Below, piece by piece: positions 6,694 to 51,300 of a stretch of 64,000 bases of DNA. This DNA comes from Candidatus Thorarchaeota archaeon (GTDB lineage: Archaea; Asgardarchaeota; Thorarchaeia; Thorarchaeales; Thorarchaeaceae): contig JBHLRZ010000007.1 in the NCBI GenBank assembly GCA_048882045.1, positions 49,935 through 113,934 of the forward strand. The letters run 5' to 3'. The position numbers were made by a program, and so were the translations under genes. The notes under the pieces are model-generated. The model was given only the letters and a program-made list of their open reading frames with translations, had not been told where the DNA came from and did no database searches. Positions within the stretch are counted from its first letter, which is position 1. Every line of letters begins with the position of its first letter.

Positions 6694-6853
6694 CCTAACT
6701 CACTGTTCCAAATCTAGGATGTCAATGCATCTGAAGTAGGTTTCGAATTCATTGTTCAGAAAATGATATATCGAGAATGGAAGTTAGAAATTGTAATTTC
6801 AGTGGTCTAGGAGTGTGAGATAAGAGACCATTCTAGGTGTAGGTGGCTGAATC

Positions 6854-8815
6854 TTGCGAAGAAAGATCCTAATTGTCATCATTTTCCTCCTGTCTACTCT
6901 AATCCCCTCTCCAATGTTTGACTCAAAATTAGGAAAGGTTGCAGAGGGAGTATCAGGAACCATAGAGTATCATACCATTGCATATACTCGACATGATCCC
7001 ATCTACATTGCATCAGACGCAGAATTCATTGCACAGGCTGCTTTAGAAGGGTGGCCTGGGGACGGTTCAGAGTCCAATCCCTACAGAATTGAAGGCTACA
7101 ACATTACTCACACGGGATTCATCATCCAAATTGAAAATGTCACTATGTTTTTTGAAATTAGGAACTGCTACCTGGCTTCAAATTCGTCAGGGGTGCACAT
7201 CGAAAGCTCCTCAGACTGTGAAGTATATTCCAACGATTTCGATAATGCAAGTATTGAGATATGTGACAGCGGTAATTGTGAAATCTATTCAAATGAATTC
7301 TATAATGGATCTGAGATACGAATTAACTGTTGTTTTCAAGTTTCGGTATCAGACGTTAGAGTCATTGCACCATCTGACCAGGGGATACTTGTTAGCAACT
7401 CAAGTCACTGCAATATCTCTAATTCCATATTATATTCATCACCAATAGCCGGGATTGTTGCAATGGATTCGCTCTCCTGCTCCTTTACTTCCAACACCAT
7501 ATCACATTGTCAGAATGGCATACTAATTTGCAACGATACCTCCTCATCTCTATTTACTAACAACTACATATTCAATCAATCAGAGTATGGAATAAAAGTT
7601 GAAAGTGGTTCTGATAACTGGATATATGCGAACATCGTAGCTAGTGAAGGAACAGGATTTTTCCTGGACGATGGTGTTCAGAATCACTGGGATGATGGAT
7701 TTTTCCTAGGAAACTTTTTGCCTGGAATAACTGAAGGAATCTTTCCCATAGACGGTTCTGCTGGGAGCGAGGATCAATTTGCAAGGCCAGTAGACCCAGA
7801 GCCAGTTGAAGAGCCAGTAATCTGTTCAGATCCGATACTGGTGAAACTCGGTGATTTTGATGGAATTCTAGCTTGTGTGGTTTGGCTGAGAGAAGAAACT
7901 CGTCTGTATAGGTTTGAGATTATCAGAAACAGATTCTACATAAATGGAGCGTTTGATCGAGATATTGAATGGTCAGGTCCATGTACTATTGTGATTGATG
8001 TAGAGGGTTTGGCTCCAGGTATTTACGAATTCAGCCTATTCCAAGATCTCTGGGTTCCCCCCTTCGATGAGGGGGAAATACATCTGTTTGATTTTACAAC
8101 CTACCTTCCCGGATTTTATTCTCCTATTGATAATGATGCTGATGACATGTTTGATGAATGGGAGATTGAGCATGGTCTGGATCCTTTGAGCAATGATAGT
8201 GAAGATGATCCCGATAGTGATGATCTCTCCAATCTTCATGAATTTATGTGGAACACTGATCCACAAAATCCCGATACGGACTCAGACCTCATGCCAGACG
8301 GATGGGAAGCTCACTACGACCTGCGACCATGGGTCGATGACTCGGGATTGGATAAAGACTCAGATGGTTTGTGCAACCTCGATGAGTATCTTCATGGAAC
8401 GGACCCAGAGGATAGCGACTCAGATTCCGATTCGATAACGGACGGATGGGAGGTGACCTTTGGTCAAAATCCATTGGATCCCTCTGATGCATTGATAGAT
8501 TCCGATGCTGATACTCTAACAAATCTCCAAGAGTTTCTACTTGGAACCAATCCAACTAGTCCAGATTCTGACTTCGATTCTTATCCTGATGCTTGGGAGG
8601 TGCGCTATGGATTCGATCCACTTACCCCTCCTGATACAATGTATGAAGAGATCGCATATTTTGCACCTTTCATTATCACTGGATATCTGACTCTTAGTGC
8701 CATATCTGTGGTGACAATAGTCATGAATCGAATGGGAAAGATGCTCCTAAAAGAGCAGAGCCAACTTGATGAAGAGGAAGAGATCAAGCGTCAACTTCAA
8801 GCTCTGATGTCTTGA
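6854..8815 (+). CDS. Surface protein: signal peptide, parallel beta-helix (NosD/CASH-like), TSP3-like Ca-binding repeats, C-terminal TM anchor
   Basis: [12 protein letters not shown], Asn/Ser/Cys-rich beta-helix repeats, multiple DxDxDx(L/M)xDxWE...GxDP repeats, TM near C-terminus. Confidence 0.85.
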
Positions 8816-11427
8816 TCTCTATATTCCTCAGGATTCTTGTCGAAGGTTTCTTTACAGTAAGGATTGCAGAAGTAGTACCTCTTTCCTTCATAGTCAGAGT
8901 AGAGATCAGCGGATGCAATGTCGACTTTCATGTTACAGATTGGGTCGATTGCTACATCTCCCTCAAGGTAGGCTGCAGGAGGAACTCCTTCTTCCTTTAA
9001 TTCCACAACCTTAGGCTTAAACCTATTCAGTGTAAGAGCGTTTGCTACAACACTGACACTTGATAGTGCCATTGCTAGTCCTGCAAATTGCGGCTGAAGA
9101 TAGAGACCGAGAGTAGGGAAGAGAAGTCCTGCGGCTACTGGAAGGAGAATGATGTTATAGATAAGTGCCCAGAAGAATCCCTGTTTGATCTTTGTCATTG
9201 TCTTCTGACCAAGTTGAATTCCTGTGACAACATCCATGAGGTCATCCTTTACTAGGACAATGTCCCCTGATTCCACAGAAACATCGGTGCCTGAGCCTAG
9301 CGCAATGCCAACATCAGCTTGAGCTAGAGCTATCGCATCATTGACACCATCGCCTGTCATTGCGACAATCTTTCCCTGAGCTTGAAGTTTCTTGATTTGT
9401 TCTGCCTTCTGATCAGGAAGGACCTCGGCCAATGCATGTTCAATACCAACAGATTCTCCAATCGCTTTGGCGGTTATCTCCCTGTCACCTGTAATCATCC
9501 AGACATCGATACCCATACCTTTGAGTGTACTCACAGCCTCTACCGAGCTTGGTTTCAGATCGTCAGCAATTGCCAAGACTGCAAGCTGCTTTCCATTGAC
9601 AGACGCATAGATTACTGTCTTCCCTAGTTGCTGGAATATTTCTGATTGGTCATCAATGTTGGAAAAGTCCACTCCGAGATCTTTCATGAACTGTTGACTG
9701 CCAACAGAAACAGTTTCTCCCTCAACAACTGCACTCACTCCTTTCCCAGTAGTGTATTGGAAATCTTCTGATTGTGGAAAAGCAATTCCCCTTTCATTGA
9801 CATAGTAAACAACTGCTTCTGCCAAAGGATGTTCGCTGTTCTTTTCCACCGATGCAATGAGTCGAAGAGATTCCTCTTCTTTATAGCTCCCCACAGTGAT
9901 GACATCGGTCACAGTCGGTCTTCCTATGGTGAGAGTTCCAGTCTTATCGAAAACAATTGTATCGATTTCTGGGATTATTTCAAGACCATCTCCTGTCTTG
10001 ATTAGGATTCCATGCTGAGCTCCCTTTCCTATACCAACCATAATTGCAGTAGGAGTGGCGAGTCCCAGTGCACACGGACAAGCTGCGACCAGAACTGCAA
10101 TTGTAAAGTTGAGTGCAAGGTCCCATTGAACGTTCATGACGAAGACCCAGAACAGGTATGTGGCAATCGAGATGACCAGAACAATGGGCGTAAACACCTC
10201 TGCGATTGAGTCTGCCTTTCGCTGGATGGCTGGCTTGTTCGTCTGAGCCTCTTCCACCATTCTGACAATCTGTGAGAGGACAGTGTCCTGACCTACCTTG
10301 GTAGCCTTGACTCTAAGAACTCCATTCTTATTGACTGTGCCACCTACAACAGAATCGCCCACTGTCTTATCAACAGCAACCGACTCTCCAGTGATCATCG
10401 ACTCATCAACCGAGGACTTCCCTTCTAGAACACTTCCATCAACAGGTACTCGATCACCCGGACGAACTAGGACAAGATCATCAACTTCGACATCTTCAAT
10501 GGGTAGAATCAGTTCTTCTCCATTGCGAATCACAGTTGCAACTTTAGCCTGAAGATCCATCAATCCTCTAATGGCCTTTGATGTGCGTCCTTTTGCAACC
10601 GATTCTAATGTGCGACCCAGTAGTATGAATGAGATCAGCAAGACAGCAGCATCATAGAAGGGGGCATAGCCAGAAAGGACGAATGTTGTTGCAACCGAGT
10701 AACCATAGGCTGCAGTTGTACCCAGCATTACAAGAGTGTCCATATTTGTCTTGAAATGTCGTAATCCTCTGAGTGCTGCTTTGTAGAACGGGTATCCTCC
10801 AATGAACTGAACAGGAGTTGAGAGGAAGAACATCAGTAGCATTTTCGTACTTTCTAGAGGAATCAGCGCATTAAGTACTCCAAAGTGGATTAGAACTACA
10901 GGAATCGTTAGTATCACTGAGAATGTTAAGAGTGTAGCATAATATCGGATTTCTTTTTCTCTTGCGAGGGATTCTCTATCTCTCTCCACACCCTCACTAG
11001 ACTCTAATTTGAAACCCAGACTCAGAATTGTCTTCCGAACAATCTTGAAGGTGACCAAATCCTCGTCGTATTCGATTAGTAGACGTTTTGAATCAGGATA
11101 GCTCCTCGCTGTTATTACTCCTTTTATCTGACTAACTGCAGTGGTAATCTCATCCCATTGAGACTCACTAGGACTTTCAGAAAGCGTTAAAGTCATCGAT
11201 GCTCTTCGAGCGCGATAACCAACGGAATCCACAGCCATTTCCAACACAGACCGATCTACTGAATCTGCGTAATATTCGACAACAGCTTTCTCATCGAGAA
11301 GACTTACACTAGCTTTAATCACACCATCTTGAGAAAGCAGTGACTTCTCAATTGTGGCAACACAGGAAGCACAATGCATTCCTTCAATTTTCATCGAAAG
11401 TCTTTCGGGAGTTTCATTTTTGGTCAT
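8797..11427 (-). CDS. copA: Cu(I)/Ag(I)-translocating P1B-type ATPase with N-terminal HMA and C-terminal YHS/TRASH domain
   Basis: GMHCASC, TGES, CPC, DKTGT, SEHP, GDGVND, YN and MALSS motifs; C-terminal DPICNM...YYFCNPYC. Confidence 0.96.
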
Positions 11428-11453
11428 CTATTTTACAATCCTTTATGCAATAT

Positions 11454-11503
11454 ATTATATCGTTGTAGATATATAGACGTAGATATATCGGTGTCGATAT
11501 ATA
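11454..11503. promoter_or_regulatory. Operator array of GATATATC-like palindromes in 14-bp phase upstream of copA
   Basis: attatatc 11454, gatatata 11468, GATATATC 11482, gatatata 11496. Confidence 0.75.
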
Positions 11504-11546
11504 AGTTTTTTGATTGGGCGGGTTTGGAAGGAAACCATATTGTCAA

Positions 11547-12017
11547 TTATAAACTCTGTTTGAACGCTTTTGCACAATGAACACAACAAAAAGTAAGATT
11601 TGTTCCATTGACTTCTTCGTAGTGCGCGCCTTCGAAAACCCTAGCTCCACAACTTGCACAAACCTCTAGGCTGGACCCGAGGGCAGATACTGTGATCGCA
11701 GCAAAACGTTTGAATAACTGGTTGCTAAATCGCTCTCCTTTCTTCGTCATTGAATAGACAATCTTACGTTTCTTCCCTATGTCTTCTTGCTTCTGGGTGA
11801 CCAGCTTCTTTTCTTCGAGTTCCTGCAAAAATGGGTATAGTGTTCCTGGACTTAATTTCTTCCCAGTTCGTTTTTCATAACTTTTCATAAGACCATAACC
11901 ATGCAATGGCTTTTCGTTCAACATCAACAAGATATAGAAATGCGAGAAATCAGCTAGTATTTCCTGAATGTCAGGATGGGGCACTTTCATGTCTTGAATT
12001 GTTTTTTCATTCGTCAT
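11547..12017 (-). CDS. PadR-family winged-helix regulator with C-terminal TRASH metal-binding domain
   Basis: PLHGYGL...SPGTLYPFLQELE...RKIVYSMTKKG; C-terminal CASCG...TFCCVHC. Confidence 0.9.
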   Translation of the reverse strand: MTNEKTIQDMKVPHPDIQEILADFSHFYILLMLNEKPLHGYGLMKSYEKRTGKKLSPGTLYPFLQELEEKKLVTQKQEDIGKKRKIVYSMTKKGERFSNQLFKRFAAITVSALGSSLEVCASCGARVFEGAHYEEVNGTNLTFCCVHCAKAFKQSL

Positions 12018-12206
12018 TTTTGTGTCAACCCAAGGAAGCTCGAATATTTTGAGTCACACAGATAAGGAATAAAGAAGTTCCCGTGTGTGACATATAATCC
12101 AATCCACGAAGCATTTTCCTATAATAGTTGCCTATTTGATTAAACTCTTCCCGATCATGCCGAGAAATGGACTACATTATATGAGATTTTGATGAGTAGC
12201 AATATA

Positions 12207-12402
12207 AATGTATCTTAAGGGATATATCCATAGGGATAATTAATGCCTGCTCTCAGGAATCCCACCGGGGCTCTATCAATGTTAGAAACAGATTTCGGAT
12301 AAGAAAAGCCAATATAGGGTGCCCGACAGAATATTTATATATATCGAGTGGGATATATCTGATTGGATACTATTGTTTGCGATATATCTGAAGAGATTTA
12401 CA
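12207..12402. promoter_or_regulatory. Two GATATATC operator arrays in the divergent regulator / YHS-lon promoter region
   Basis: aatgtatc 12207, GATATATC 12221, gataat 12235; tatatatc 12338, GATATATC 12352, gatac 12366, GATATATC 12381, gattta 12395. Confidence 0.72.
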
Positions 12403-12421
12403 TAAAGCAGAGGCAAAGGAA

Positions 12422-12577
12422 ATGGCTAGAGACCCAATATGTGGAATGATAGTAGATGAGAACACAACCAAGCTAAAGACAGTTCATAAAGGAGAAACTT
12501 TCTACTTCTGTATGATGAGCTGCAAGAAAGCCTTTGACAGTGATCCAGATCGCTTTGCCATCGAATCCACAAATTAA
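12422..12577 (+). CDS. YHS/TRASH domain small metal-binding protein (51 aa, not in ORF track)
   Basis: Hand translation MARDPICGMIVDENTTKLKTVHKGETFYFCMMSCKKAFDSDPDRFAIESTN*; preceded by aaagga. Confidence 0.9.
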   Translation: MARDPICGMIVDENTTKLKTVHKGETFYFCMMSCKKAFDSDPDRFAIESTN

Positions 12578-12598
12578 TAATAGAGCAGGAGATTATCT

Positions 12599-15052
12599 AT
12601 GAAAAAACTGACACCAGAAGAAATTCGGGTTCGTTGTGATGATAGGGAGTTTGCATGCAGAACTAGTGCAGAGCTTTTTCCCCTAGATAATATCGTTGGA
12701 CAGAAACGTGCTCTTGAATCATTGCGATTCGGACTAATGATAAAGGATAAGGGATTCAATGTCTTTGTTGCGGGTATTCCAGGAACTGGTCGCACCACTG
12801 CAGTTTCAAAATTCCTTCAAAATCTTGCAACAAACGAATCGAATGCATCAGATTGGTGCTATGTAACCAATTTCGAGAATCAGTATCACCCACGGGCTCT
12901 TGAGCTTCCATCAAGTAGAGGGATGCAATTAGAGCAGCAAATGGAGAGCTTCATTGAACTTGCTCAAATGACGCTTTCTGAGATGCTGGAAAGTGAGGAA
13001 TATATTATACAAAGAAATCAACTTCTGAAGGTTTTCAAAGACAAACAGCAGGAAATAAGCAATCAAATGGAAAATGAAGCACGAAAAAACGGGTTCATAT
13101 TGCAAGGTTCTAAGACGCGACTACTCTTACTTCCAATAATCAATGGTGAGCCTCTCGATCCTGAAGCAAACGTCCACCTGCCCAAGGAAATCGAAGAGAA
13201 AATCGCAGAAAATCGTGAAGTCGTGGAAAAGCAAATGCGAGTGCTTTTCCGCAAGTTACGTCTTATTGAACGTGAACTTCGTGAAGCTCTTCAGAATAAA
13301 GAACGAGAAGCTGTGCTTTACGCCCTCTCCCCACTTATTGATGACCTTAAGGAGAACTTCAGGGATCTGCCAAGGGTTACACAGTGGATTCAGGAAGTAG
13401 CTGAGGATATCACCGAACATCTTCAGGAATTCATCGGACTCTCAGAAGTTGATTCATCAGATGAGCTGGATTTATCGCAATCGGGATCAATCACACGGGA
13501 AGATTTCACTCATAGATATAGAGTGAATCTGTTCGTTGATAATTTGGGAGCAGATGGCGCTCCTGTTGTAATCCTTGCAAATCCTTCTTATAACAACTTA
13601 TTTGGTGTAATAGAGAAAGAACCACGATATAGCGGACTTAGAACAGACTTTTCTATGATTCGCCCAGGAGCCCTGCATAAGGCAAATGGTGGTTATCTAG
13701 TTGTTCCAGCACTGGAACTTCTAACTTCTCCACATGTCTATCAATCTTTGAAGAGGGCCCTTGAACATAGCGAGATAGTTATCGAAGAACCTCAGGAATC
13801 AAGCAACTTCTTTACTGTGAAGAGTTTACGTCCGGAACCAATCCCATTGGATGTGCAAGTAATTCTAATTGGCGAGGAAGAGATTTACCAAGAGCTTTAC
13901 AATAAGGACCCCGAATTTCGGCAACTTTTCAAGGTAAAGGCAGAATTTGACATTTCGATGGATCGCACGCCTGAAAACATCCATGTATTTGGCTCGTTCA
14001 TTTGTATGATTCACTCAAGGGAAGGGCTGAACCCTTTGAAAGCAGACGCCATTGCAGAAGTAATCGATTATAGCTCCCGCCTAGCGGAGAATCAAAACAA
14101 GCTCTCTATAAGATTTGACATAATAACTGACATCATTCGCGAAGCAAACTTCTATGCGAGCGAAGAAAAAAGCATCACCATAGAAAGAGATCATATCGAA
14201 AAAGCCATCCGTCAAAGATTATACCGATTGAATCTTTATTCAGAGAAGGTTCGTGAGCTCATTAAGAAGAATATCATTTTTATCGATCTTGAGGGGGAAA
14301 CTGTAGGACAAGTAAATGGACTTTCGGTGGTCACTCTTGCAGGTCATACTTTTGGACAAACATCTCGAGTTACAGCTAGTATATCCCCAGGGCACCAGGT
14401 TGTAATAGATATTGAACGTGAATCAAATCTTGGTGGTCCGATTCATACAAAAGGAGTACTCATACTTGCGGGATATCTTGCTAATCGATACGGAAGAGAA
14501 AAACCACTTAGTCTTTCTGCGCGGATTGTCTTTGAGCAGAGTTATGGAGGCGTTGAGGGAGATAGTGCAAGTAGCACAGAACTGTTTGCAATTTTATCTG
14601 CTCTTTCAGGAGTACCTATCCAACAGAGATTTGCTGTAACTGGCTCCGTCGATCAACATGGACGAATTCAAGCTGTGGGAGGAATTAATGAAAAGATTGA
14701 AGGATTTTACGAACTCTGTAAAGCAAAAGGTTTGACCGGGCATCAAGGAGTCTTGATACCAAAAACCAATATTCAGAATTTAATGTTATCAGATGAAGTA
14801 GTTGAAGCTGTTAGGATGGACTCATTCCACATTTATGCAATAGAAAATGTGGATGAAGGCATTGAATTGTTAACTGGTGTACCAGCAGGCAGAAGTCAAG
14901 AGAATGGAAACTATTTGCCAGGATCAATTAATGCAATGGTGGATGAGTTTCTGGTTCGAATGGCCAAAATTATGGAAAAGTATTCTACTGAGAATCACAG
15001 CAAACATGAAATCTCTACTACACCACAACAAGTGACGTTCTCTGGAGGCTGA
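12599..15052 (+). CDS. Lon-like protease, LonC/AAA_32 type (soluble, degenerate ATPase)
   Basis: VGQKRAL, Walker A variant GIPGTGRT, coiled-coil insertion, PGALHKANGGYL, catalytic dyad GDSASS and GGINEKIEG. Confidence 0.92.
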   Translation: MKKLTPEEIRVRCDDREFACRTSAELFPLDNIVGQKRALESLRFGLMIKDKGFNVFVAGIPGTGRTTAVSKFLQNLATNESNASDWCYVTNFENQYHPRALELPSSRGMQLEQQMESFIELAQMTLSEMLESEEYIIQRNQLLKVFKDKQQEISNQMENEARKNGFILQGSKTRLLLLPIINGEPLDPEANVHLPKEIEEKIAENREVVEKQMRVLFRKLRLIERELREALQNKEREAVLYALSPLIDDLKENFRDLPRVTQWIQEVAEDITEHLQEFIGLSEVDSSDELDLSQSGSITREDFTHRYRVNLFVDNLGADGAPVVILANPSYNNLFGVIEKEPRYSGLRTDFSMIRPGALHKANGGYLVVPALELLTSPHVYQSLKRALEHSEIVIEEPQESSNFFTVKSLRPEPIPLDVQVILIGEEEIYQELYNKDPEFRQLFKVKAEFDISMDRTPENIHVFGSFICMIHSREGLNPLKADAIAEVIDYSSRLAENQNKLSIRFDIITDIIREANFYASEEKSITIERDHIEKAIRQRLYRLNLYSEKVRELIKKNIIFIDLEGETVGQVNGLSVVTLAGHTFGQTSRVTASISPGHQVVIDIERESNLGGPIHTKGVLILAGYLANRYGREKPLSLSARIVFEQSYGGVEGDSASSTELFAILSALSGVPIQQRFAVTGSVDQHGRIQAVGGINEKIEGFYELCKAKGLTGHQGVLIPKTNIQNLMLSDEVVEAVRMDSFHIYAIENVDEGIELLTGVPAGRSQENGNYLPGSINAMVDEFLVRMAKIMEKYSTENHSKHEISTTPQQVTFSGG

Positions 15053-15951
15053 TGAGTATGACTAAGCAAAATATCCTCATCAAGAATCTGGAGGGATTGA
15101 ACAAATCCATCTTCTTTAGAACAATGATAGCCCCATTAGAACCTCAGATAATAAAGCAGGAAGTAGTACAATCTGAGCACTTCATAGATTCCGACATCAT
15201 CGTCGAGTTTCTAGAAAATCGTACATACTTGCCTGAGTTTGACTATATCGGTTATGAAGTAAAAACTGTTGATCGTGTTAACGCAGTATATTTAATGATA
15301 AATCCAGATCCATTGAATCTTGATTATGTACCAAAAAACAGTCTGGTTATTTGCCATCACAAAATTTCTACTCACAATAATCGTATCTACAAAAAAATGC
15401 TTGACCACGCAAGAAATTCAAAATTCAACATTTACAACTTCCACCTGGGGTGGGATATTATGGAAGGTGGAATCTTAGATTCATTTCTGTTTGACTTTGG
15501 ATTATCTCATCATGATTTCGAAAAGGTTGATCTTACATATCGAGGTTATCTAATTCCTCAATTAGGAGCTATATTCAAAAAAAGGTTAACAATGGAGGAC
15601 ATAATTAACAGACTTTACATGATGAATGTCCAGCTATCAGTTATCATTAATCCACAATGCAAGGCATCCAAGGTTGGATACATACCTGGTGGTGGTTTTG
15701 TTGATGATATGGTCATAGAAATGGCGGATTTAGGTGTCGATGTTCTCATTTCATCAGACCATAATTGGGTAGTTGAAACTATTGCCAGAGAGGAAAGGAT
15801 GACCCTAATTGAGATTGACCATTATCGCAGTGAACGTCATGGTTTACGAACAATGAAGAACCTCCTTGAGAACTCATTTTCAAACATTCCCATCAATATC
15901 CTAGAGAATGTTGATGGAATGGAACGAGCTCCATGCGATTGTAATTCTTGA
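15052..15951 (+). CDS. NIF3/DUF34-like dinuclear metal-centre protein
   Basis: ICHHK, FHLGWD, IPGGG, ISSD, IDHYRSE; start overlaps the lon stop (TGATG). Confidence 0.75.
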   Translation: MSMTKQNILIKNLEGLNKSIFFRTMIAPLEPQIIKQEVVQSEHFIDSDIIVEFLENRTYLPEFDYIGYEVKTVDRVNAVYLMINPDPLNLDYVPKNSLVICHHKISTHNNRIYKKMLDHARNSKFNIYNFHLGWDIMEGGILDSFLFDFGLSHHDFEKVDLTYRGYLIPQLGAIFKKRLTMEDIINRLYMMNVQLSVIINPQCKASKVGYIPGGGFVDDMVIEMADLGVDVLISSDHNWVVETIAREERMTLIEIDHYRSERHGLRTMKNLLENSFSNIPINILENVDGMERAPCDCNS

Positions 15952-16069
15952 GGAATAAACATCCAAGAAGAACTGTCGTTGGTTAGAATTTAGTGTTAAA
16001 TAGCGAAGTCTTGTTGCATGTTGGCTCAAACATACCTCTTCTATGATCGTTTCTTCAATTTACTCATTT

Positions 16070-16969
16070 CTAATCCATCTTTGATTGAACTCTCTTCGCC
16101 CGAACGATCTTTACATTAACAATAATGTGGCTAGGGTTGATACGTTCCTGATTCTTGGTTTTAATGTAATAGAGTAAAATCAACAAGATATATCCAACAT
16201 ATGCAATGACCTCAATGGCTGAAGGATTCCCATTGTAACCGAATAGAGCTTTTGCGAGTCCACCAATAAGACCTTTCTCATGCAAAAGTGGATAACTGCC
16301 ATCTGGTAATAATGGAGGATTGATGTTCCAAAGTTCACTTGGACCTAAGGCTAAGAAACCTACTTCTTGAAGCTCATGAATACCATAGGCAATCATTCCA
16401 GCGGCAAATAATACCAAAAGGAAAGAAGTTGAATTGAAGAATGATTTTAGACTGATTCGTAATGAGCCTTGATAGATTCCAAATCCGACGAAGGCTGCGA
16501 ATATTAACCCCAAGGCTACTGCAATAAAAGTCGTATAGCCTTCTTGGATTGCTAATGCAGCTGAGAACAGGACTAATTCAACGCCCTCCCGCAAAACAAG
16601 AGCAAAAGCAAGAATGGGTAGACCGAGTTTCCCTCCCACAGTCCTCTCCTCAACGGATTGTCTGATTTCTGTGGTTAGGTTTGTACTCGCCTTTCTCATC
16701 CAGAATATCATAGAAGTCAGGAGAAATGCAGCAAATAAAACAAGTGACCCCTCAAAGACCTCCAGCATTGGTCCTTCAAATGACCCCCAAATCACCCCCA
16801 GCACAGAAGCTAATCCGATACTTGTGATTATTGCAAGTAATGTGCCGCTGATGATGCTACGATTCATATTCTCTCTGCCAGTCTTGCGAAGATAAGAGAA
16901 CATTATTGCAATGACAAGAGCAGCTTCAATACCTTCACGCAGTGCAACAATGAATGGTGCAATGAACAT
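16070..16969 (-). CDS. FTR1/EfeU family iron permease
   Basis: Two RExxE motifs (LREGIE, LREGVE), GIHELQE, ALFGY. Confidence 0.92.
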   Translation of the reverse strand: MFIAPFIVALREGIEAALVIAIMFSYLRKTGRENMNRSIISGTLLAIITSIGLASVLGVIWGSFEGPMLEVFEGSLVLFAAFLLTSMIFWMRKASTNLTTEIRQSVEERTVGGKLGLPILAFALVLREGVELVLFSAALAIQEGYTTFIAVALGLIFAAFVGFGIYQGSLRISLKSFFNSTSFLLVLFAAGMIAYGIHELQEVGFLALGPSELWNINPPLLPDGSYPLLHEKGLIGGLAKALFGYNGNPSAIEVIAYVGYILLILLYYIKTKNQERINPSHIIVNVKIVRAKRVQSKMD

Positions 16970-17128
16970 TATAGAATCCCCCTATCATGGAATATTCCTA
17001 CTCGTCTAGCAGAAATTGACTTCGGAGAATGCCACATAACATAATGTCTATGCTTCTCTAGTCTATAGATAAACGATATAGAAGACCCATTGATTTCCTT
17101 TTTTGGATCCACAACTCTGCTCATGAGT

Positions 17129-17521
17129 TCAACCTCCTCCTGTACCAACCAAAAATACGATTGTGTCACCTTCATCGAGTCTTCTATTCATTTTTTCTTT
17201 TGAATCGAGTCCCATTCTTAGTTTCCAACCCGTTACGATTATTTTCCCATTAACTATGATTATTGTTTCATTACTGAGGGTTTTGCTTTTCTTCTCGTCT
17301 AGATACGCATCCAATGAATAAACAAACTCACTCATCAAGTGATCAATGAGATCAGTGAGCGAAGTTCCTTCTTGAATATGAAGTGGAAATTTGTTATAGT
17401 TTGATTCTCTTAGGCCCCTATTCAACAGCTTAATGAAGACTTGAATCACTGAGTTTTTCCCCTTCGATAGTTTTTGTCTAGAATACAACTTTGGCTTGTT
17501 GTAAATTTTCGAGAGTGTCAT
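17129..17521 (-). CDS. MoaD/ThiS/Urm1/SAMP-like ubiquitin-fold protein with C-terminal GG
   Basis: GTSLTDLIDHL, IIVNG, LDEGDTIVFLVGTGGG-stop; true start may be ~24 codons downstream. Confidence 0.8.
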   Translation of the reverse strand: MTLSKIYNKPKLYSRQKLSKGKNSVIQVFIKLLNRGLRESNYNKFPLHIQEGTSLTDLIDHLMSEFVYSLDAYLDEKKSKTLSNETIIIVNGKIIVTGWKLRMGLDSKEKMNRRLDEGDTIVFLVGTGGG

Positions 17522-17552
17522 ATTGTAGAATTCCTTCTTTGATATGCATCTC

Positions 17553-17738
17553 TTAGCCGCAGCAACCTCGTCGGGGTATTGCTACTATTCTACGCTGTGA
17601 ATAGAAATCGGGGGAATCATCAAAACTTGTTTTGCATGACTGCTTGCAGAAATAGTATCTTTTTCCCATGTAGTCAGAATAATACTTAGTTACGTTTTCG
17701 TTAACCTCTAATCCACAAACTGGATCTTTTACCATCAT
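17553..17738 (-). CDS. YHS/TRASH domain small protein with GCCG tail
   Basis: DPVCGL...YYFCKQSCKTSFDDSPDFY...RRGCCG. Confidence 0.88.
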   Translation of the reverse strand: MMVKDPVCGLEVNENVTKYYSDYMGKRYYFCKQSCKTSFDDSPDFYSQRRIVAIPRRGCCG

Positions 17739-17859
17739 TATATCACCTTCAGTTCCAGTTCTACTCTTGTGCTTTCAATATTCAAGATCTTGGTTAACGA
17801 GCATTGCCATCAAATAGGCCAATTGTTCACCCAATCTCTTGATTCTATATTACCACAAG

Positions 17860-17937
17860 GATATATCGGAACTGTATTATTATGGCACGCTTCAGCTTAT
17901 AAATATATCGTGTTAGATATATCTTGCATGATATATA
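17860..17937. promoter_or_regulatory. GATATATC operator array in 14-bp phase upstream of the YHS-Ubl-FTR1 unit
   Basis: GATATATC 17860, aatatatc 17902, GATATATC 17916, gatatata 17930 (offsets 42, 14, 14). Confidence 0.75.
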
Positions 17938-18030
17938 ATTGCGTTAGTAATTCAAAAGAAAAAAGAGAGAGAAGTGGGAATCTTCTCCCGCCCATTTAAA
18001 AATTGCACAATAATCCTTAGGCTAAGGTCC

Positions 18031-18183
18031 TTACTCTTCAATTCCCACTTCTAGATTGTATTTCTCAGGATTGGCATCAAACATCTTCTTATGCTCTGAG
18101 TTCATAAAGTAGTAGGTCTTGCCCTTATAGACAGATTTGATGTTTGGTTTACCCATCATACCGCAAACGGGACATTTTGACAT
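18031..18183 (-). CDS. YHS-like small protein with altered ligand set (50 aa, not in ORF track)
   Basis: Hand translation MSKCPVCGMMGKPNIKSVYKGKTYYFMNSEHKKMFDANPEKYNLEVGIEE*. Confidence 0.85.
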   Translation of the reverse strand: MSKCPVCGMMGKPNIKSVYKGKTYYFMNSEHKKMFDANPEKYNLEVGIEE

Positions 18184-18259
18184 TTTTTCTTCACCATGTG
18201 TCCAGATCATCTATTCCCATTCAGGATATAGAGTACCCACCAATTGGAGGGCACTCCCA

Positions 18260-18365
18260 TTTATATCCATAGAGATATATCGTAGACGACTATGTCAATG
18301 CCACAAGCAAATATAAATCTATCGTACTAGATATATCCAAGCGGATTTATTCAAGTTGATTATAA
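18260..18365. promoter_or_regulatory. GATATATC operator array in 14-bp phase upstream of the third YHS gene
   Basis: tttatatc 18260, GATATATC 18274, aatctatc 18316, GATATATC 18330, gatttatt 18344, gattataa 18358; all offsets are multiples of 14. Confidence 0.75.
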
Positions 18366-18444
18366 ATTAGTAGTTCATCTATTCTTTTGGTATGAGTTGT
18401 ATTGAAGACATTCGAGTTCATTGGAACTCAAAATCGTCTCATTA

Positions 18445-19032
18445 CTAGCCAACGAAGTATTCGCTTTCCTTCTCATTCGCAGCTTCACTCATCATTCTTA
18501 GAAGCTCATGAAAGGTGTCCTGAATATTAGCCCCAGTCCTTGCAGAGGTTTCTCGGAATATTGCTGGGACTCCGAGTTTGTTGATGAAGTACTGTGTGAA
18601 TGCCTGACCTTCTTCTGGAGTTACATACTTTTTCTTGTCGAGACTCGTTCTCAGATCTATCTTGTTACCGATAATTACAGTTGGTGGAAGTGGCCCCATG
18701 TTCCTAAAAGCTTCAACCAGCCATTTAGAGGCATTATCAAATGACTCACGATCGATTACAGAATACACAAGTAGGATTCCGTTGCAGCCAGCATAATAAT
18801 GACCTCGCACTTTCTCGAAAGTCGGCTGACCTGCCAGGTCCCAAATGATGAACTTGACAACATCCTGCTCGAACAACACACGCTTGGTAGCGAGGTCGAC
18901 ACCGATTGTGGCAAGGTGTCCCTCGATGAAGTCCTCTCCAAGATAATTGCGTCTGATACTTGTCTTTCCGACAGCTCCGTCTCCAATAAGGACTGCTTTC
19001 ATGATTTTGCTGCCGTCGTCTTGGTCTCGCAT
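18445..19032 (-). CDS. Rab-like small GTPase
   Basis: GDGAVGKT, TIGVD, WDLAGQ, NKID, TSAR. Confidence 0.93.
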   Translation of the reverse strand: MRDQDDGSKIMKAVLIGDGAVGKTSIRRNYLGEDFIEGHLATIGVDLATKRVLFEQDVVKFIIWDLAGQPTFEKVRGHYYAGCNGILLVYSVIDRESFDNASKWLVEAFRNMGPLPPTVIIGNKIDLRTSLDKKKYVTPEEGQAFTQYFINKLGVPAIFRETSARTGANIQDTFHELLRMMSEAANEKESEYFVG

Positions 19033-48372: not shown

Positions 48373-51300
48373 TCAATGATATTTGTGCTTGCAATGGATG
48401 AAACTATGCCAGTGCCACCACTTTCTATGTAACCAGCAGGGACGCAATCCCTTTGTCGCATCATATATCTGACCATCGTCTACGGGCATAACAAATCCGC
48501 ATCGCTTTTTATGATGTGGCACATAGACAAGAACAGAGCCAATGGTTTCACCACCTCTCCCATCTGAGGCAAGGAATGTAATTTCATAGACCCGGCCATT
48601 GCCGCATCCAGACCTCTGAGCCCTCAGCCAAGCTGTATCGGATCCGACACCATATGCATCTGGCCACAATCCAACGAACTCGTCACTCGTGATGTTCAAG
48701 ATGGTGATGGTAACATCATCGCCATCTGGGTCTGTGACACCTTCTATAGCTATCTCTACAAATTTGCCATTAGGCGGCCACAAGAACTGAACACTTGGGA
48801 CTGCTAGTGTCACATTTGGAGGTTGGTTGTATGTTTCCGCACCAGCTCCAAAGAATGACAGGTGCTTCACATAAGCCCATACGTAACCAGCATATGACTC
48901 ACCAAACCGGACCACATCCGTTGTGTTAACTCCGCAGTCGACAACCCAATCCATCTCAACAGAGAGTTTTTCCCATATACCAGTAGACTCATCGAGCCAA
49001 TACAGACCAATCTTAGATTCATCAAGGTCTTCCATATCGTTTGGCAGTCCATCTCCTGTACGGTCTAAGTCAGCTGTTCGATAGTACAACCTGATGTAGG
49101 TGACATTCATGTTTTGAGTTCCATCACCCAAAATCAACTCTGTATCAAGATACGTGCCTAGAGAGTATTCATAGGGCATTAGTCCCGTTGAACTATTCAG
49201 GATATATGGTGTCGATTGATCGTCATATCTGCAAATGGTCATCTCCGGTGCAGCTACCTCGTTCAAGGATACCTGGATGATTGCATCAGTATGCTTCAGT
49301 GTATCAATCTCATTCACCATGAAGTAGATACTATATTGACCTTCAGCATATTTGAATGCAGGAAGTGTGCTGTACTCCAAAAATACTGAGTCAGGATATA
49401 CAGTTACGTTCTTTCTGTTGAAGATGTTAATGACTCTAAAGACATCTGTCGTCTGTGCCTCAGAGAACATGATGATCGTTTGTGTCTCATTCCAGACACC
49501 ATATCGCACAACATACTCAAGTTCCCCAGAGGCAAGCATGTCCACAGTTGCACCGCAGTCAACCAATAGATCTGCGATTAGAGACCCAACTGTTCCATCC
49601 ACATCGTAGGGATTACCAATCAGAATTATCCTGCTTGAATTCCTATAGTTGACAAAGAACTCCTCCAAGGTCACATTTGAAACAGTCATCTGCTCAGCGA
49701 GCAAGTCACCAAACAGAATTGATTCAGGAGTCTCATCGTACACCAGAACTACATCTGCTTCTTTTAAGAATCCATCGTACATCTCAGGAGTACTGTAGTT
49801 GCTCAGAGGGCTCGTTCCAGCCTCTAGCTCGATTCCGTCAAGACTACCATCGTTATCAGTATCATTACAAAGTGGGTCCATGTGGAGTAAAACTTCTAAT
49901 CCGTCAGTCACATTATCGTGATCAGAATCGTCATTATTTGGATCTGTACCAAGATAGATCTCAGCAGAATCTAGTAATAGGTCATTATCGGAATCGTTGC
50001 TCCAAGGATCCGTTCCCAAGACCAACTCAGTCCCATCGAAAATGAAATCGTTATCTGAATCGGGTGATAACGGGTCAGTTCCTGCATCGTTCTCCTCTTT
50101 GTCACTTGCCCCATCGTGATCAGTATCAAAATTCCAGGGATCAGTTCCCAATTGAAATTCCAGTGGATCTAGCAAACCATCGCCATCAACATCCGGATTT
50201 AATGGGTCGCTACCGAAGTTGAGTTCTGTGCCATCATCTATTGTATCGAGATCAGAATCAAAGTGGATGATGTTCAAGCCAAGACGGAGCTCGTCTGGAT
50301 CTAAAACGCCATCTTCATCAGTATCGACGCTTTGAGGATTGGAACCTAGTAGCCACTCGTCATAATCTGAAATACCATCAAAATCGCTATCAGCTAGATA
50401 GATGGAGCTATTCACGTGGACATCTGTTCCATGCGCTGTTGTGATTGTAATGGTCCAACCATTAAGCTCAGTTGTATCGCTCAAATCATCTTGGTCCCAA
50501 TCAGTGACATCATCCTCAAGGTCAGGTCTCACGATGATCAGGGTCTCCCTGAACTTGATGACATGAGTCGGATTAGCCACGTATATGTAGCCTTCGTCAT
50601 CAACATCTATTGTCAAAGGATTGTCTACCTCAAGTGTCGCCTGCCAGATGAGTTCATTATCGAACTTCACAATACGGTTGTTTCCACTGTCAGCGATGTA
50701 GATATTCCCCTCTGCGTCCACTGCTACATCAGTCGGTGTGTTGAGAGGAATACCATCCGCAGATAATATTGGTGGTAGACCATTTGCGAGTACGCCACTT
50801 GAGTCAAATATACACACCTTATTTCCGCCAGAGTCTGCAACATAGATGAGACCATTTGGTCCGACATCGATTCCTCGAGCTTGCTCAAGCTCGCTCCATC
50901 CGAAACTGTCCTGAAGACCCCATGTGCTTTGGCTATACTTACGAATATTGGATAAATCACCATCAAAGCATGAAAGATAGACTGAACCTCCTCCTGAAGC
51001 CATTCCCCAGATTTGGTGAAGAGGAGTATAACCCATACCACCATAATCTGGTATCCCCCTAGTGAGAATGATGTTGCCAAGCGAATCACTCACGGTGAAA
51101 CTTTCCCATGTTCTGTCAGCATTGAACTCAAAGAAATACTCCCAATTTGTTTGAGGCGTAGATGGAACTATGACCCAGCCTAATGTATTAACCCAAATGG
51201 TTTTGCCATCCGGGCTAATTTGCACTCCCTGTCCAAAGCGATTCCCCAGTCCATAGACTTGATTTATTACAGGGAGGGGATTTGATATCTTAGACACCAG

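Follow-up and report, generated by a model that had tools for sequence, protein, structure and literature searches.

Phased palindromic boxes as likely operators of a PadR-TRASH regulator in a thorarchaeotal copper island

Results

Palindromic boxes precede all five transcription units of the island

The DNA analysed here (the window; 64,000 nucleotides, positions 49,935 to 113,934 of contig JBHLRZ010000007.1) belongs to the metagenome-assembled genome of an uncultured Asgard archaeon (Candidatus Thorarchaeota; assembly GCA_048882045.1; 93 contigs, 3.63 Mb in total, 44% G+C) and contains a copper (cop) island, in which the gene for a protein with a PadR and a TRASH domain (PadR-TRASH) lies 120 bp upstream of copA. 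The promoters of this island carry boxes of the 8-bp palindrome GATATATC, which are likely the operators of the adjacent PadR-TRASH protein; the protein would repress the genes until Cu(I) or Ag(I) binds to its TRASH domain. The initial annotation had described five clusters of perfect or near-perfect palindromes in a 14-bp phase at all promoters of the island, and this was borne out: there are five transcription units and five arrays, each array directly upstream of one unit, and the near-perfect copies also lie where they had been claimed (Table 1). Independently, Tandem Repeats Finder reported a period of 14 at 11465-11503 and 12339-12391.

The arrays differ in layout. That of copA consists of two strong 22-bp sites (11454-11475 and 11482-11503; matrix scores 22.1, 17.3 and 26.6 bits, see below for the matrix) and reads, in gene direction, TATATATC-GACAYN-GATATATC, a variable 6 bp and one more unit of this kind. 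With C...T at the junction, no site is formed there, so that the two sites, 28 bp apart, are discrete; in the copA promoters of two other genomes of the genus (G002 and G004), one of the two is retained. The regulator gene, YHS59, and an operon on contig C75 (see below) share the layout GATATATC-N6-GATAnATTTATAT, with the weaker element merging into a TATA-like word; in the PadR-TRASH operator, it is the gene-proximal element that merges into TATA-like ATTTATAT. A second site follows 40-56 bp downstream at YHS59 and C75. At YHS59, site A (18316-18351) overlaps TATA-like ATTTATAT and site B (18260-18281) lies ∼40 bp further downstream, a two-site layout that recurs in G002, G004, and G009. The array of YHS61 combines three adjacent elements (17902-17937) with a separate site (17846-17867) and is kept in G002, as is the YHS51 array together with its single 15-bp step (12366 to 12381), which had been noted before and is indeed present.

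The arrays are rare in the genome and not a compositional effect

Exact GATATATC occurs 12 times in the window against 1.46 expected, a count reached in 0 of 100 shuffles, and eight of the copies lie in the five clusters. The lone copies at 6765, 16187 (within the FTR1 gene, in its coding sequence), 35156, and 52798 lack a partner element and were put down to chance. Genome-wide, the 8-mer is not enriched (90 copies, ∼83 expected), and the arrays are therefore not a compositional effect. Triples in the 14-bp register (at least 20 of 24 matches) numbered five in the whole genome, four of which lie in the island and the fifth on contig C75, with other periods yielding none or one. The exact word ATATC-N6-GATAT was found 19 times, six times in the island, and the same half-sites with spacers of 0-5 and 7-12 bp gave 6-19 matches each genome-wide, none of which was in the island.

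A symmetric 22-bp matrix (ATATATC-N6-GATATAT) was trained on 123 sites, taken exclusively from the loci of other genomes, and compared with a null of three simulated order-3 Markov genomes. At 20 bits or more, it returned 11 sites in 3.63 Mb, nine in the island, where all five clusters were represented, and two on C75 (nulls 0, 1, and 1). At 18 bits or more, the count was 15, made up of 11 sites in the island, three on C75, and one at the locus of a PadR paralogue on contig C35 (nulls 0, 2, and 1). By the triple, spacer, and matrix counts, phased arrays are not common in the AT-rich intergenic DNA of this genome. The earlier statement that none exist outside the island holds within the window, but the genome has one more, at C75:3161-3222. 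That the regulon can be defined from sequence alone is upheld, in that the foreign-trained matrix recovers the island and one further operon only.

Other candidate sites were set aside. Pairs at a 14-bp distance at C2:43507 and C5:145604/145646 are weak and inside long open reading frames (ORFs), and were attributed to chance. The site at C35:12782 (L003:3983-4004), an exact ATATC-N6-GATAT between a TRASH-less PadR paralogue (PadR domain at ORF residues 125-195) and a divergent aldo/keto reductase gene, was assigned to this paralogue locus and not to the island regulon; cross-talk between the paralogue and the island operators is possible.

Anatomy of the site and the 14-bp step

Positions 2-8 of the matrix read ATATATC and positions 15-21 GATATAT. 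In the 123 foreign sites, conservation is 99% at the inner C and G and lower at the outer bases (∼43% G/C at the outermost positions), and the 6-bp spacer is nearly free in sequence. Judged by this conservation, the functional unit is the 22-bp inverted repeat ATATATC-N6-GATATAT with the core ATAT-N8-ATAT, and GATATATC as a perfect palindrome would arise mainly where two units share an element. As the 8-bp element is self-complementary, neighbouring units can share an element or abut at a 6-bp spacing, which generates arrays with a 14-bp step. The earlier proposal of ATATC-N6-GATAT as a dimer site fits everything that was testable, including the conservation of the inner C and G and the agreement with the geometry of the canonical PadR box. 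Its extension to chained sites applies in part: overlapping sites share the central palindrome elsewhere, but copA carries two discrete 22-bp sites and no uniform chain.

Among 67 distinct clusters from loci of Thor- and Hermodarchaeota, 44 of the 62 distances from one site to the next measure exactly 14 bp, and the longer ones scatter between 21 and 56 bp. The 14-bp step between neighbouring sites is, on this comparison, a conserved rule. A phase that persists across gaps had been reported too; the intervals of 42 and 56 bp are real in this genome, but they are not conserved (51-56 bp at the orthologous YHS promoters, 40 bp at C75), and a function of the long-range phase was rejected since orthologues do not keep it.

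The box follows the regulator gene

Seven further species of the genus encode orthologues of PadR-TRASH (64-90% identical), and in all seven the arrays upstream of copA, the regulator gene, and YHS59 are kept while the flanking sequence has diverged; the conservation of the motif upstream of orthologues, suggested as a check in the initial annotation, was thus found. The word TATATC-N6-GATATA occurs 3-8 times per genome in the eight genus genomes with a full orthologue and 0-3 times per genome (10 in total) in the 16 without, a phylogenetic profile that is supporting evidence and no formal test, the genomes being interrelated and incomplete. Seven of these 10 stray matches are a different palindrome, TATATCAYATRTGATATA. 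It constitutes a second class of 18-bp palindromes (contig C20:57353-57370; L119:2552-2573), is found in many species of the genus, some of them without PadR-TRASH, and is probably the operator of another regulator.

With one genome per species considered, relatives of PadR-TRASH are encoded on 348 stretches from Thor-, Hermod-, Heimdall-, and Borrarchaeota and from Bathyarchaeia. Family-wide counts refer to the best 80 of the 348 stretches, including 32 labelled Asgard and 36 from Bathyarchaeia, and a box was scored when ATATC/GATAT with at most one mismatch occurred within 250 bp upstream of the PadR-TRASH gene. The ATATC-N6-GATAT form precedes the regulator in 26 of the 32 Asgard-labelled loci. 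In Bathyarchaeia, 27 of 36 loci have a form with a 7-bp spacer (N7), and none has N6. In control windows of the same loci, N6 was found in 18 of 1218 (1.5%) and N7 in 15 of 1218 (1.2%). The box thus follows the PadR-TRASH gene across two phyla, with a spacer that shifts with the lineage of the protein. A copA-like ATPase lies within 4 kb in 63 of the 80 loci, and a YHS protein or domain is encoded in 60; in many Bathyarchaeia loci, the operator sits in a short divergent region between the regulator gene and copA or a YHS gene.

In three distant loci of the Bathyarchaeia type (L068, L107, and L108), an FTR1-family permease is encoded directly downstream of PadR-TRASH, so that the link between the copper regulator and FTR1 recurs outside the island. 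Two loci of this type, L107 and L109, are on contigs labelled as Firmicutes and Latescibacterota metagenome-assembled genomes, probably owing to binning errors.

The regulator combines a PadR winged helix with a TRASH-type cysteine domain

The PadR domain (PF03551) was detected with Pfam at residues 29-97 (E = 9.2e-16; 58 bits, cut-off 27), and TRASH-type matches cover residues 119-154 (Ta0938, 27.5 bits vs 27; TRASH_HVO_1752_C, 20.6 vs 27). The cysteines C120-x2-C123-x20-C144-x3-C148 conform to the TRASH pattern C-X2-C-X19-22-C-X3-C, and C120, C123, C144, C145, H147, and C148 (CxxC...CCxHC) are invariant in 60 relatives. An AlphaFold2 model (predicted local distance difference test score 85) consists of a winged helix, a single long helix (92-116), and a small β/α cysteine domain. 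With the first ∼105 residues, Foldseek retrieved TA0346, Rv3488, LmrR, and bcPadR1 of PadR subfamily 2 (target-normalised template modelling [TM] scores up to 0.84), and a profile search of the PDB returned PadR proteins exclusively, with no solved structure spanning the PadR-TRASH fusion; no Lrp/AsnC domain was matched in Pfam. PadR proteins bind ATGT-N8-10-ACAT as dimers, and those of subfamily 2 dimerise via a single C-terminal helix of 20-30 residues (PMC3506622). By its winged helix-turn-helix (wHTH) and single C-terminal helix, both predicted, the regulator would belong to subfamily 2. The candidate operator ATAT-(C N6 G)-ATAT has the geometry of the canonical ATGT-N8-ACAT, and the N7 form of Bathyarchaeia corresponds to N9, within the range of 8-10.

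One operon beyond the island carries the same array

The array on C75 precedes an operon of a 78-aa orphan ORF, the gene for an 89-aa Zn-ribbon protein, and that for a PEMT/ICMT-like membrane methyltransferase. In G006, an equivalent array of three elements stands before a Zn-ribbon gene and a PEMT gene, whose product is 77% identical; because the array precedes the Zn-ribbon/PEMT operon in both genomes, the operon is taken to be a conserved member of the regulon. The 78-aa ORF was rejected as a conserved target, as it has no relative in 40 related genomes. A 2.2-kb contig of a further genome (G012:C269; L114) bears two very strong sites, at 51-72 (27.3 bits) and 374-395 (25.7 bits); a radical SAM/SPASM gene follows the second and may also belong to the regulon of that species.

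Genes and other features of the island

The coordinates of genes and arrays are listed in Table 1. CopA was assigned to the NCBIfam copper-translocating ATPase subfamily and has the CPC, DKTGT, and MALSS motifs. Within the YHS51-Lon-NIF3 operon, the junctions are a 21-nt gap and then a 1-nt overlap. A terminator-like hairpin follows the lone YHS59 gene, and its sequence is identical in G002 and G004; the island is therefore counted as five transcription units. The true start of YHS59 is probably the second ATG (18186), since orthologues align from residue 8-9 onwards and this ATG is closely preceded by GGTGA.

Table 1. Genes and predicted control elements of the copper island (numbering of the window; arrays are given with the start positions of their 8-bp elements and, where listed, matrix scores).
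Feature	Position	Strand	Details
copA array	11454-11503	-	Four elements in a 14-bp register: 11454/11468/11482/11496
PadR-TRASH gene operator	12207-12242	-	Three elements: 12207/12221/12235; 21.1, 18.9 bits
YHS51-Lon-NIF3 array	12338-12402	+	12338/12352/12366, 12381; 25.4, 18.0, 14.4 bits
YHS61-Ubl-FTR1 array	17846-17937	-	17860...17902/17916/17930; 25.7, 22.5, 14.9 bits
YHS59 operators	18260-18351	-	18260/18274...18316/18330/18344; 22.8, 21.2, 21.0 bits
copA	8797-11427	-	P1B-type copper ATPase; N-terminal HMA and C-terminal YHS domain (Pfam)
PadR-TRASH regulator gene	11547-12017	-	156 aa (Pfam)
Operon YHS51 / LonB/LonC-like protease / NIF3	12422-15951	+	Pfam, ORF layout
YHS51	12422-12577	+	
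LonB/LonC-like protease	12599-15052	+	
NIF3	15052-15951	+	
Operon YHS61 / 130-aa protein / FTR1 permease	16070-17738	-	Pfam, ORF layout
YHS61	17553-17738	-	
130-aa protein	17129-17521	-	Ends in GGG
FTR1 permease	16070-16969	-	
YHS59	18031-18210	-	Small metal-binding protein, lone gene (Pfam YHS)
Terminator-like hairpin and T run	17967-17989	-	After YHS59; separates it from the next promoter

The 130-aa protein encoded between YHS61 and FTR1 has the C-terminus GTGGG and a weak match to the ThiS family (E = 0.013), which makes it a possible ubiquitin-like protein or sulfur carrier within a metal regulon. A 68-aa ORF (16969-17175, - strand) overlaps its gene by 47 nt and, being 53% conserved in G002 and split there over two frames, may not be a real gene. 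In the ∼160-nt leader between the PadR-TRASH operator and the ATG, an inverted repeat, GTCACACA...TGTGTGAC (12046-12098; arms ∼23 nt apart), is conserved in G002 and could be an RNA hairpin or the site of another factor. An Rfam scan of 11300-18500 gave no match at the gathering score, and a sigma-70 promoter scan, irrelevant for an archaeon, did not exceed shuffles. Next to the island, a Ras-family small GTPase is encoded (18445-19032, - strand; Pfam E = 2e-40), which stands beside the cop cluster in each of the seven further genomes of the genus that were examined, as well as in 17 of the 80 loci of the family, without an operator of its own.

Discussion

The positions of the sites, their promoter specificity, their conservation, and their co-occurrence with the regulator gene were computed; from these, we infer the binder, repression, the metal, and possible cooperativity. 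In the proposed mechanism, one winged-helix dimer would read one 22-bp unit, whose core ATAT-N8-ATAT would be a variant PadR box. The five island units and the one operon elsewhere each carry one to three such units, of which one would overlap the TATA-like sequence and another often lies ∼40-56 bp downstream. The metal-free regulator would probably block TBP/TFB or RNA polymerase, also at its own gene, and binding of Cu(I) or Ag(I) to the C-terminal TRASH cysteines would cause its release. Going by where the sites lie, we favour repression that Cu(I)/Ag(I) would relieve as the likeliest mode. In Bathyarchaeia, (A/T)TAAATATATC surrounds the first element, and 9-20 nt separate the end of the second from the ATG; the site would thus cover both the TATA box and the start region of a transcript with hardly any leader, as expected of a repressor. 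The mRNAs of the genome studied here have leaders, judging from the Shine-Dalgarno words GGTGA/GGAGG, which alone show a clear peak, at -20 to -11, in ∼1650 upstream regions.

Several points weigh against this interpretation. The Pfam scores of the TRASH domain are at or below the curated cut-offs. Across the ∼1650 upstream regions, TATA-like words rise only diffusely upstream of genes; TATA boxes could not be placed independently, and we therefore only infer that the sites overlap with them at the TTATATAT or ATTTATAT words. There are ∼10 other PadR-family genes in the genome, and at least one paralogue locus (C35) has an exact ATATC-N6-GATAT, so that the box by itself leaves room for cross-binding. 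On simple geometric grounds, an 8-bp element shared by two sites would be contested by two canonical dimers, although a single LmrR operator can accommodate two of them (PMC5428041). Finally, the characterised archaeal TRASH regulators (CopR) activate copA.

The latter fact is the starting point for an alternative in which the boxes are operators of PadR-TRASH, but the regulator is a copper-dependent activator or a dual regulator, as is the Lrp-type CopR. Pyrococcus CopR stays bound to DNA, represses its own gene, and stimulates copA in vitro from a site upstream of the transcription factor B recognition element (PMC7830388), and the arrays at copA, YHS51, and YHS61 reach both upstream and downstream of the TATA-like element. 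We nevertheless consider activation unlikely: at most promoters, one element coincides with a TATA-like sequence and a second with the expected transcription start, the Bathyarchaeia site is entirely between the TATA-like sequence and the ATG, and the PadR-family proteins that have been studied are mostly repressors released by a ligand (PMC3506622, PMC5428041).

Still less probable is that another factor, for instance one of the PadR paralogues, reads the boxes and that the PadR-TRASH gene is merely a co-regulated neighbour. Despite the box in the divergent intergenic region at C35:12782, and despite the conservation of the related palindrome TATATCAYATRTGATATA in the genus even where PadR-TRASH is missing, the box precedes the PadR-TRASH gene in two archaeal phyla regardless of the neighbouring genes, its spacer varies with the PadR-TRASH lineage, and within the genus, island-type sites occur only where the orthologue is present. 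The latter observation, i.e. the loss of the motif from genomes without the regulator, also speaks against the idea that the arrays are unusual AT-rich promoter sequence (reiterated TATA boxes) without a dedicated regulator. Although TATATATC resembles an archaeal TATA box and an A-rich stretch precedes the first element in several arrays, the G/C flanks and the exact 6-bp spacing are 99% conserved while the spacer sequence varies, and none of the genome's other ∼1650 upstream regions contains the motif, which makes this explanation very improbable.

Beyond repression by individual dimers, PadR-TRASH might assemble along the phased elements into a higher-order array that is dissolved by copper on the TRASH domain, an extension that we regard as doubtful. 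Successive dimers would be rotated by ∼120 degrees, with a step of 14 bp in Thor- and Hermodarchaeota and of 15 bp in Bathyarchaeia. If this were true, the response could be switch-like and couple copper export to proteostasis (through the LonC-like protease and the ubiquitin-like protein), iron uptake, and a membrane methyltransferase, and such an assembly, together with its regulon, would be a mode not described for any archaeal metal sensor.

The PadR and TRASH domains are already annotated in databases. Literature searches for PadR, TRASH domain, and copper yielded no paper joining them, those on TRASH-domain transcription factors in archaea no PadR fusion among the papers listed, and the 15 top-ranked of 410 matches to GATATATC no operator study. 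What is added here is the 14-bp array rule, the foreign-trained matrix with the regulon derived from it, the N6/N7 spacer switch, and the PEMT operon as an extra target. To our knowledge, TRASH is fused to an Lrp-type domain in all characterised archaeal copper sensors; in PadR-TRASH, it is carried by a PadR scaffold, with a new predicted operator. We know of no genetics for Thor-, Hermod-, or Heimdallarchaeota or for Bathyarchaeia, and with a sharply defined operator, the regulons of metagenome-assembled genomes can be deduced straight from sequence. The N6 and N7 forms lend themselves to a comparison of how half-site spacing is set by a PadR dimer, and the predicted regulon would join copper stress to a LonC-like protease, NIF3, a ubiquitin-like protein, an FTR1 permease, and a PEMT/ICMT-like methyltransferase, connections that are put forward as hypotheses.

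Among known systems, the archaeal CopR proteins (Pyrococcus furiosus PF0739 and those of Thermococcus, Saccharolobus, and Halobacterium, VNG1179C) resemble PadR-TRASH in the TRASH cysteine domain at the C-terminus, which is presumed to sense copper, in the adjacency of the gene to copA, and in sites at their own and the copA promoters with several contacts per promoter (PMC7830388). In contrast, CopR is built from an Lrp/AsnC helix-turn-helix and an oligomerisation domain, whereas PadR-TRASH has a PadR winged helix and one presumed dimerisation helix; the CopR operator, TTNNCAWWWTGNNAA (PMC7830388), is not the conserved motif ATATATC-N6-GATAT found here; and CopR octamers wrap ∼150 bp, nothing alike being known for PadR-TRASH. 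With PadR subfamily 2 (LmrR, Rv3488, bcPadR1/2), the regulator shares the wHTH with a single C-terminal helix (TM score up to 0.84), in its candidate operator, the inverted-repeat geometry of tetranucleotide half-sites 8 bp apart (ATGT-N8-ACAT vs ATAT-N8-ATAT), and autoregulation, which is predicted here from the site at its own gene. It differs in the extra, putatively metal-binding TRASH domain after the dimerisation helix, in a half-site of different sequence that extends to 7 bp, in arrays with a 14-bp step being the rule, and in its archaeal origin and association with copper genes instead of drugs or phenolic acids. Bacterial CopY has a wHTH of the BlaI/MecI type, a CxCxxxxCxC tail, and the cop box TACAnnTGTA; its wHTH family, cysteine motif, and operator are thus all distinct, without sequence relationship to PadR-TRASH. 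The logic proposed here is nonetheless that of CopY, in which a small winged-helix dimer, whose C-terminal cysteines form a metal site, sits on a palindrome to repress the cop operon and is released by copper.

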